64,000 nt of DNA from Escherichia coli. GTDB taxonomy: Bacteria > Pseudomonadota > Gammaproteobacteria > Enterobacterales > Enterobacteriaceae. The stretch lies in NCBI RefSeq assembly GCF_046105845.1, contig NZ_CP151004.1, one strand, 5' to 3'. This document shows, piece by piece, positions 62,630-64,000 of the stretch. Positions within the stretch are counted from its first letter, which is position 1. Each line of letters begins with the position of its first letter. Position numbers: made by a program.

Positions 62630-64000
62630 GAATGACGCGGTAACCTTCTTCACGCAGGGCTTTACATGCTTGCGCGCCAGAGTAGTCAAACTCACACGCC
62701 TGACCGATAACAATCGGGCCCGCACCCAGAATCAGGATACTTTTTATATCTGTACGTTTTGGCATGGCTCTTTTACTCCTGATTACTTAGCGGTTTTACG
62801 GTACTGCTCAATTAACTCGATAAAGTGGTCGAACAACGGCGCGGCGTCGTGTGGACCAGGGCTGGCTTCCGGGTGACCCTGGAAGCTGAACGCCGGTTTA
62901 TCGGTGCGATGAATGCCCTGTAACGTACCGTCGAACAGGGATTTATGCGTGACACGCAGGTTTGCAGGTAATGTTGCTTCATCCACCGCAAAACCGTGGT
63001 TCTGGGCGGTGATCATCACCACGTTTTTCTCAACATCTTTAACCGGATGGTTGCCGCCGTGGTGACCAAATTTCATTTTGATGGTCTTCGCACCGCTCGC
63101 CAGCGCCAGCAGCTGATGACCGAGACAGATACCGAAGACCGGAATATCGGTTTCGAGGAATTTCTGGATGGCGGTAATGGCGTAATCGCATGGGGCCGGG
63201 TCGCCAGGACCGTTGGAGAGGAAGATGCCGTCTGGATTCATTTTCAGCACGTCTTCCGCAGAAGTTTGCGCCGGAACGATGGTCAGGCGACAGCCTCTAT
63301 CCACCAGCATCCGCAGGATGTTGCGCTTGGCACCAAAATCATAAGCCACGACGTGGAACGGCAGCTCGTCTTCTTTTTTCGCTTCTGGCAGGCCGCCGGT
63401 CAGCGTCCAGCTCCCTTGTGTCCAGCTATACGTTTCTGCGGTGGTCACTTCTTTTGCCAGATCCATGCCGTTCAGACCTGGGAACGCGCGGGCTTTTTCT
63501 AACGCCAGCGCCGCATCCGGGTTATCGCCCGCGATAATGCAGCCATTCTGTGCGCCTTTCTCGCGCAGTAAACGCGTCAGCTTACGGGTATCGATATCGG
63601 CAATCGCCACGATGTTATGGCGCTTCAGGTAAGAAGAGAGGTCTTCGGTATTACGGAAGTTGCTGGCAATCAGCGGCAGGTCGCGAATCACCAGACCTTG
63701 TGCATGTACCTGAGAAGATTCTTCATCGGCGTCATTAGTGCCGACATTGCCAATATGGGGATAAGTAAGAGTAACGATTTGACGAGAATAGGAAGGATCA
63801 GTGAGGATTTCTTGATAACCGGTCATTGAAGTATTGAAAACGACTTCCCCAACCGCCGAACCTGTTGCCCCTATGGCCCGACCGTGAAACTGGGTTCCGT
63901 CTTCCAGAACCAATAGCGCTGACTTAATCAAAACACCCTCCAGAGAATATTCACTCACTTTATTTGCATATTAATTCACAATGATGACGTAAATCAATGC

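Follow-up and report, generated by a model that had tools for sequence, protein, structure and literature searches.

How is the carAB operon controlled at the point where this stretch of the E. coli genome ends, and do the two ARG-box-like sequences found there form a real operator? The DNA analysed, a stretch of 64,000 nt that we call the window, breaks off shortly upstream of carA. A sequence-only reading had proposed that two adjacent palindromes at this edge are ARG boxes through which ArgR represses the P2 promoter. We find that positions 63942-63980, read on the minus strand, are almost certainly the ArgR operator of the E. coli carAB P2 promoter. The carAB P2 operator is already known, and the copy described here matches that of K-12 base for base. 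In the classic tandem-promoter model, carbamoyl-phosphate synthetase is repressed cumulatively, and this site would supply the arginine-responsive part. The finding matters only as correct annotation, and as a case in which a real operator can be recognised from sequence alone.

The minus-strand end of the window reads GCATTGATTTACGTCATCATTGTGAATTAATATGCAAATAAAGTGAGTGAATATTCTCTGGAGGGTGTTTTGATTAAGTCA... and places the two boxes between a TTGATT hexamer and the Shine-Dalgarno sequence of carA (Table 1). The hexamer is within the window, 11 nt upstream of box 1, and 10 nt separate the end of box 2 from the TTG start codon. Each box is an imperfect palindrome by direct reading, with 5 of its 9 symmetric pairs complementary. 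Two tandem 18-bp boxes that agree with the consensus and with a weight matrix are what an ArgR operator should contain, and the TAA spacer has the fixed 3-bp (rarely 2-bp) length of such operators. The boxes also overlap a core promoter of the arginine regulon, that of carA, for which the exact -10 and -35 assignments are putative. Both strings named in the sequence-only reading occur on the minus strand inside 63941-63985, and its second box is exact. Its first box, TGAATTAATATGCAAAT at 63978..63962, is likewise present, but it spans 17 nt and is offset by 2 nt from the canonical frame; the pair stands with the register and length of box 1 corrected.

Table 1. Features of the carAB control region and operon. 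Positions above 64000 are virtual, that is, mapped past the end of the window.
Feature	Position	Strand	Sequence, size or basis
ARG box 1 (upstream box)	63980..63963	-	TGTGAATTAATATGCAAA, 18 bp
Spacer between ARG boxes	63962..63960	-	TAA, 3 bp; sequence reading
ARG box 2 (downstream box)	63959..63942	-	AGTGAGTGAATATTCTCT, 18 bp
P2 -35-like hexamer (putative)	63997..63992	-	TTGATT, 18 bp upstream of TAATAT
P2 -10-like hexamer (putative), inside box 1	63973..63968	-	TAATAT, best TATAAT-like sequence upstream of the mapped start
P1 -35	virtual 64061-64066	-	mapped from K-12/VCSW7
P1 -10	virtual 64038-64043	-	mapped from K-12/VCSW7
P1 start	virtual ~64031	-	mapped from K-12/VCSW7
carA	62783..63931	-	382 aa; RefSeq annotation of matching genomes, TIGR01368
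carA start codon	63931..63929	-	TTG
carA Shine-Dalgarno	63941..63937	-	GGAGG, 5 nt upstream of TTG
carB, second operon gene	59544..62765	-	1073 aa; ORF list, annotated in matching E. coli genomes

How far do these boxes stand out from the surrounding DNA? When the ARG-box consensus WNTGAATWWWWATTCANW was scanned over the 64 kb, box 1 differed from it by a single mismatch and was the top match, and box 2 differed by three. Matches with at most 3 mismatches numbered 12 against 6.25 expected, and a single ARG-box match is therefore weak evidence when taken alone. Because single matches are this common, we built an ArgR matrix from the tandem boxes of ten K-12 operators, with carAB left out. These operators lie upstream of argF, argI, argA, argD, argG, argR, argE/CBH, artJ, artP, and hisJ. 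Their boxes were chosen from the ten operator regions by seeding with the consensus, followed by three rounds of refinement; the matrix owes nothing to carAB but does depend in part on the published consensus.

With this matrix, box 1 scores 20.1 bits, more than any other single box in the window, and box 2 scores 12.7 bits, a weak match by itself. As a pair with a 3-bp spacer they reach 32.8 bits (20.1 + 12.7), and the runner-up tandem, near 9.8 kb in A+T-rich DNA, has 14.85 bits. As a null model, 300 sequences of 64 kb were simulated with a first-order Markov chain; in these the maximum tandem score averaged 10.4 bits and was at most 22.6 bits; none of the 300 reached 32.8. In leave-one-out scoring the ten known operators span 22.5-39.8 bits, and the carAB pair falls inside that range. 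The matrix match on which the sequence-only reading had staked its claim is thus present, at 32.8 bits against 14.85 for the next site.

The closest known system is that of K-12, where the P2 promoter and its ArgR operator were reportedly described by Piette (1984) and Charlier (1988, 1992). On the minus strand, window positions 63900-64000 equal K-12 MG1655 29582-29682 at 100% over 101 nt, with window 64000 falling at K-12 29582 and the TTG of carA at K-12 29651. The carA gene itself shares 98.3% of its nucleotides with the K-12 gene, and the two proteins differ at 2 residues. Across the species, a 75-bp control segment reaches an identity of 99% or more in 5268 of 5425 E. coli genomes; a 1.3-kb carA query is conserved to that degree in only 89 of 5425. 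The argR gene lies outside the 64-kb window; 5425 of the 5426 complete E. coli genomes carry it.

Some strain-level observations accompany this comparison. The closest genome over the 1.3-kb carA query is that of the soil isolate VCSW7, at 99.8%. In REL606 (E. coli B, NC_012967.1 33554-33827), position 16 of box 2 is changed from C to A (TTCTCT to TTCTAT), and the GGAGGG Shine-Dalgarno run has a 1-bp deletion relative to both the window and K-12. BL21(DE3) (CP053602.1), unlike REL606, is 100% identical to the window. The changes in REL606 may be genuine or may stem from sequencing.

Is the arrangement retained in other species? We located Enterobacterales loci through a pattern in carA codons 10-18, which is independent of the operator, and obtained at least 120 loci; the comparison used the 115 of those listed for which 200 nt or more upstream were available. 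Among the matches listed, carA starts with TTG in all 115 species. In 113 of these 115 species, the best tandem match has a 3-bp spacer and ends 9-13 nt before the TTG, the same position as in the window. These 113 sites, again among the matches listed, score 15-37 bits, and all but one score at least 20.

The pattern of conservation within the upstream region is uneven. We aligned 112 unique Enterobacterales upstream regions among the matches listed. Conservation peaks at the P1 -10 element and start, TTGAT, the core of box 1, the half-sites of box 2, and the stretch from the Shine-Dalgarno sequence to the TTG, and it drops between these elements and in the flanking sequence. The TTGAT of the P2 -35-like hexamer is invariant in the 112 unique regions among the matches listed, as is the GGAGG of the Shine-Dalgarno sequence across the species aligned. 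In box 1, the 14-bp core TGAATTAATATGCA hardly varies in 113 species among the matches listed, and its invariance extends to positions that the ArgR matrix tolerates (the central WWWW and position 14). Box 2 retains TGA.T....TATTC across species and shows 49 variants at its remaining positions, among the matches listed. Conservation across species correlates with the information content of the matrix for box 1 (rho 0.53, p=0.025); for box 2 the correlation is not significant (rho 0.34, p=0.17). Box 1 overlaps the P2 -10 element, and part of its invariance may therefore reflect the promoter rather than ArgR.

The few deviating loci have a common setting: among the matches listed, missing or degraded tandem boxes upstream of carA were seen only in insect symbionts with reduced genomes. 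Candidatus Regiella insecticola is without ARG boxes upstream of carA; unrelated G+C-rich sequence takes the place of the whole P2/operator segment, and a P1-like segment is kept. The boxes of Serratia symbiotica are degenerate, and the tandem of Pantoea sp. Nvir scores 15.4 bits. It is possible, though in our judgement unlikely, that the invariance of box 1 reflects a constraint beyond ArgR and the P2 -10 element, such as a further factor or a role of the P1-derived 5′-UTR as RNA, and, separately, that the erosion of the operator in symbionts represents regulatory decay. If true, both readings would leave the identity of the feature in the window unchanged.

Could the two boxes be chance matches in A+T-rich promoter DNA, with no role in repressor binding? 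The excess of single consensus matches fits such an origin, as do lone boxes scoring 17-18 bits that lie elsewhere in the window in A+T-rich intergenic DNA. However, a tandem that scores more than double the runner-up, beyond all 300 simulations, is a different matter, and the same arrangement recurs, equally far from carA, in 113 of the 115 species among the matches listed. Moreover, the sequence is identical to an operator for which footprints and operator-constitutive mutations have been published (PMC6245113). The tandem score, the conservation, and the identity to K-12 effectively refute coincidence, which we regard as scarcely conceivable. A different concern is that the segment is conserved only because of constraint on P2, the 5′-UTR, and translation initiation, and that ArgR control is inoperative in this strain, for example because argR is defective. 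A -10-like hexamer does lie inside box 1, the 14-bp core of this box varies less than the ArgR matrix would allow, and argR is not within the 64-kb window. Against this, box 2 lies downstream of the P2 start and still keeps the ArgR half-sites TGA.T and TATTC, with variation at its other positions. The presence of argR in all but one of the complete E. coli genomes also speaks against loss of the repressor, and the operator is identical to that of K-12, in which repression has been demonstrated (PMC6245113). We reject this explanation as very improbable on the strength of the box 2 half-sites, the prevalence of argR, and the K-12 identity. The proposal that ArgR represses P2 through a dedicated operator is the better account: an operator identical to that of K-12, a matrix match well above chance, and a conserved position all point to it, as far as sequence comparison can.

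Where do the boxes lie relative to the two promoters? In both K-12 and VCSW7, the closest genome, P1 has the same sequence, TTGACT-17-CAGAAT, with the GTTTGCC start region after it. We take the G of the GTTTGCC motif to be the P1 start, following the literature on reiterative transcription. The -35, the -10, and the start of P1 all map past the edge of the window (Table 1), where the sequence-only reading had put this promoter. Two promoters drive carAB; their starts are 67 nt apart, that of P2 being the downstream one (PMC6245113). By this arithmetic the P2 start maps to ~63964, and the ARG boxes extend from about -16 to +23 of P2, covering the -10 element and the start. The review that gives the spacing disagrees: according to its text, the boxes partially overlap the P2 -35 element (PMC6245113). 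The disagreement leaves the conclusion on the carAB P2 operator unaffected. A simple sigma-70 promoter scan of the K-12 copy, with a threshold of 9 of 12 positions, called P1 but did not call P2, because TTGATT-18-TAATAT matches at 8 of 12. The P2 hexamers are therefore putative.

The remaining control sites belong to P1. PUR, IHF, PepA, and RUT (RutR) sites have been placed upstream of carAB P1 (PMC6245113, Fig. 2 legend), and the PepA, IHF, and PurR sites would thus fall past position 64000, as had been anticipated. P1 and the PurR, IHF, PepA, and RutR sites are present in K-12 and VCSW7; their equivalents here would occupy virtual position 64031 onward. The PUR box of K-12 carAB is GCAAGCGTTTTCCA. 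Since the window edge splits the control region between P1 and P2, the window supports no conclusion on control by pyrimidines or purines.

How would the operator act? The literature suggests that, when arginine is plentiful, a single arginine-loaded ArgR hexamer would bind both ARG boxes cooperatively. Binding of one such hexamer to two 18-bp boxes 3 bp apart has been described (PMC6245113, PMC2952853, PMC6640053), as have its cooperativity and the contacting of one helix face (PMC6245113, PMC2952853, PMC6640053, PMC4381063). The 3-bp spacer is the canonical design of E. coli ARG boxes (PMC6245113, PMC4381063). With this spacing, the two boxes in the window would lie on one face of the helix, and ArgR binding would be expected to bend the DNA. 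Because the boxes cover the P2 core promoter (the -10 element and the start), RNA polymerase would be excluded from P2, and polymerase and ArgR are reported to be mutually exclusive there (PMC6245113, PMC2952853, PMC6640053). Transcripts from P1, which is switched off by pyrimidines (PMC6245113), would start 67 nt upstream and read through the operator because ArgR is a poor roadblock; P1 transcription does pass through the ArgR-bound site (PMC6640053). Through P1 and P2 together, arginine and pyrimidines would repress carbamoyl-phosphate synthetase cumulatively, in the classical manner.

The experimental record for this sequence comes from K-12. Footprints and operator-constitutive mutations have been published for the carAB operator, mutations in the boxes relieve repression, and arginine-dependent ArgR binding and repression are reported for the identical K-12 sequence (PMC6245113). 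A full-text literature search turned up no paper with the box sequences, and in the ArgR ChIP-exo paper carA appears only in the reference list.

The window is identical to K-12 carAB P2 throughout the 101 nt compared and shares its two 18-bp boxes, 3-bp spacer, TTG start, and carA-carB order. It differs from K-12 in carA coding sequence (1.7% of nucleotides, 2 residues) and in that the P1 half is cut by the window edge. For the carAB operator of Salmonella enterica, PMC6245113 cites Kilstrup (1988) and Lu (1992). S. enterica subsp. arizonae has the same box 2, the same spacer, and the same spacing to the TTG as the window, whereas its box 1 begins AATGAAT rather than TGTGAAT and its tandem scores 34.6 rather than 32.8 bits. 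Two 18-bp imperfect palindromes are common to the operators of argF, argI, argECBH, argA, argD, argG, argR, artJ, artP, and hisJ. These share the type A/T-N-TGAAT-WWWW-ATTCA-N-A/T, close to the promoter, with a spacer of 3 bp (2 bp in argR). Unlike these other ArgR operators, that of carAB acts on just one of two tandem promoters, the downstream one, and transcription from P1 crosses the bound site (PMC6640053).

The genes downstream complete the locus: P2 and the ARG boxes lead into carA with its TTG start and then carB, as in a tandem-promoter control region. The carA product scores 508 bits against TIGR01368 (cut-off 307), and with the 1.3-kb query 5425 of the 5426 complete E. coli genomes give a match to carA/carB that is annotated as carA. 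A TTG start codon for carA is also stated in the literature (PMC6245113). A mechanical ORF list begins carA at GTG 63958, inside ARG box 2, which would give 391 aa. We reject this start as a longest-ORF artefact, the TTG at 63931 being kept in all 115 Enterobacterales loci listed. The query covering the carA control and coding sequence also matched at three places on records labelled plasmids, and 1 of the 5426 genomes was without any match.

Elsewhere in the window, isolated ARG-box-like 18-mers occur at 9600-9617 (18.0 bits), 51429-51446 (17.2 bits), and 35126-35143 (17.1 bits). All three sit in A+T-rich stretches without a partner at 2-3 bp spacing and are most likely chance matches. Finally, an Rfam scan at gathering thresholds found SgrS at 15086-15312 on the minus strand and, on the plus strand, the leucine operon leader at 10178-10327 and a TPP riboswitch at 18078-18177. 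These elements are consistent with the window being the K-12-like region from carAB to leu/ilvIH in reverse orientation.
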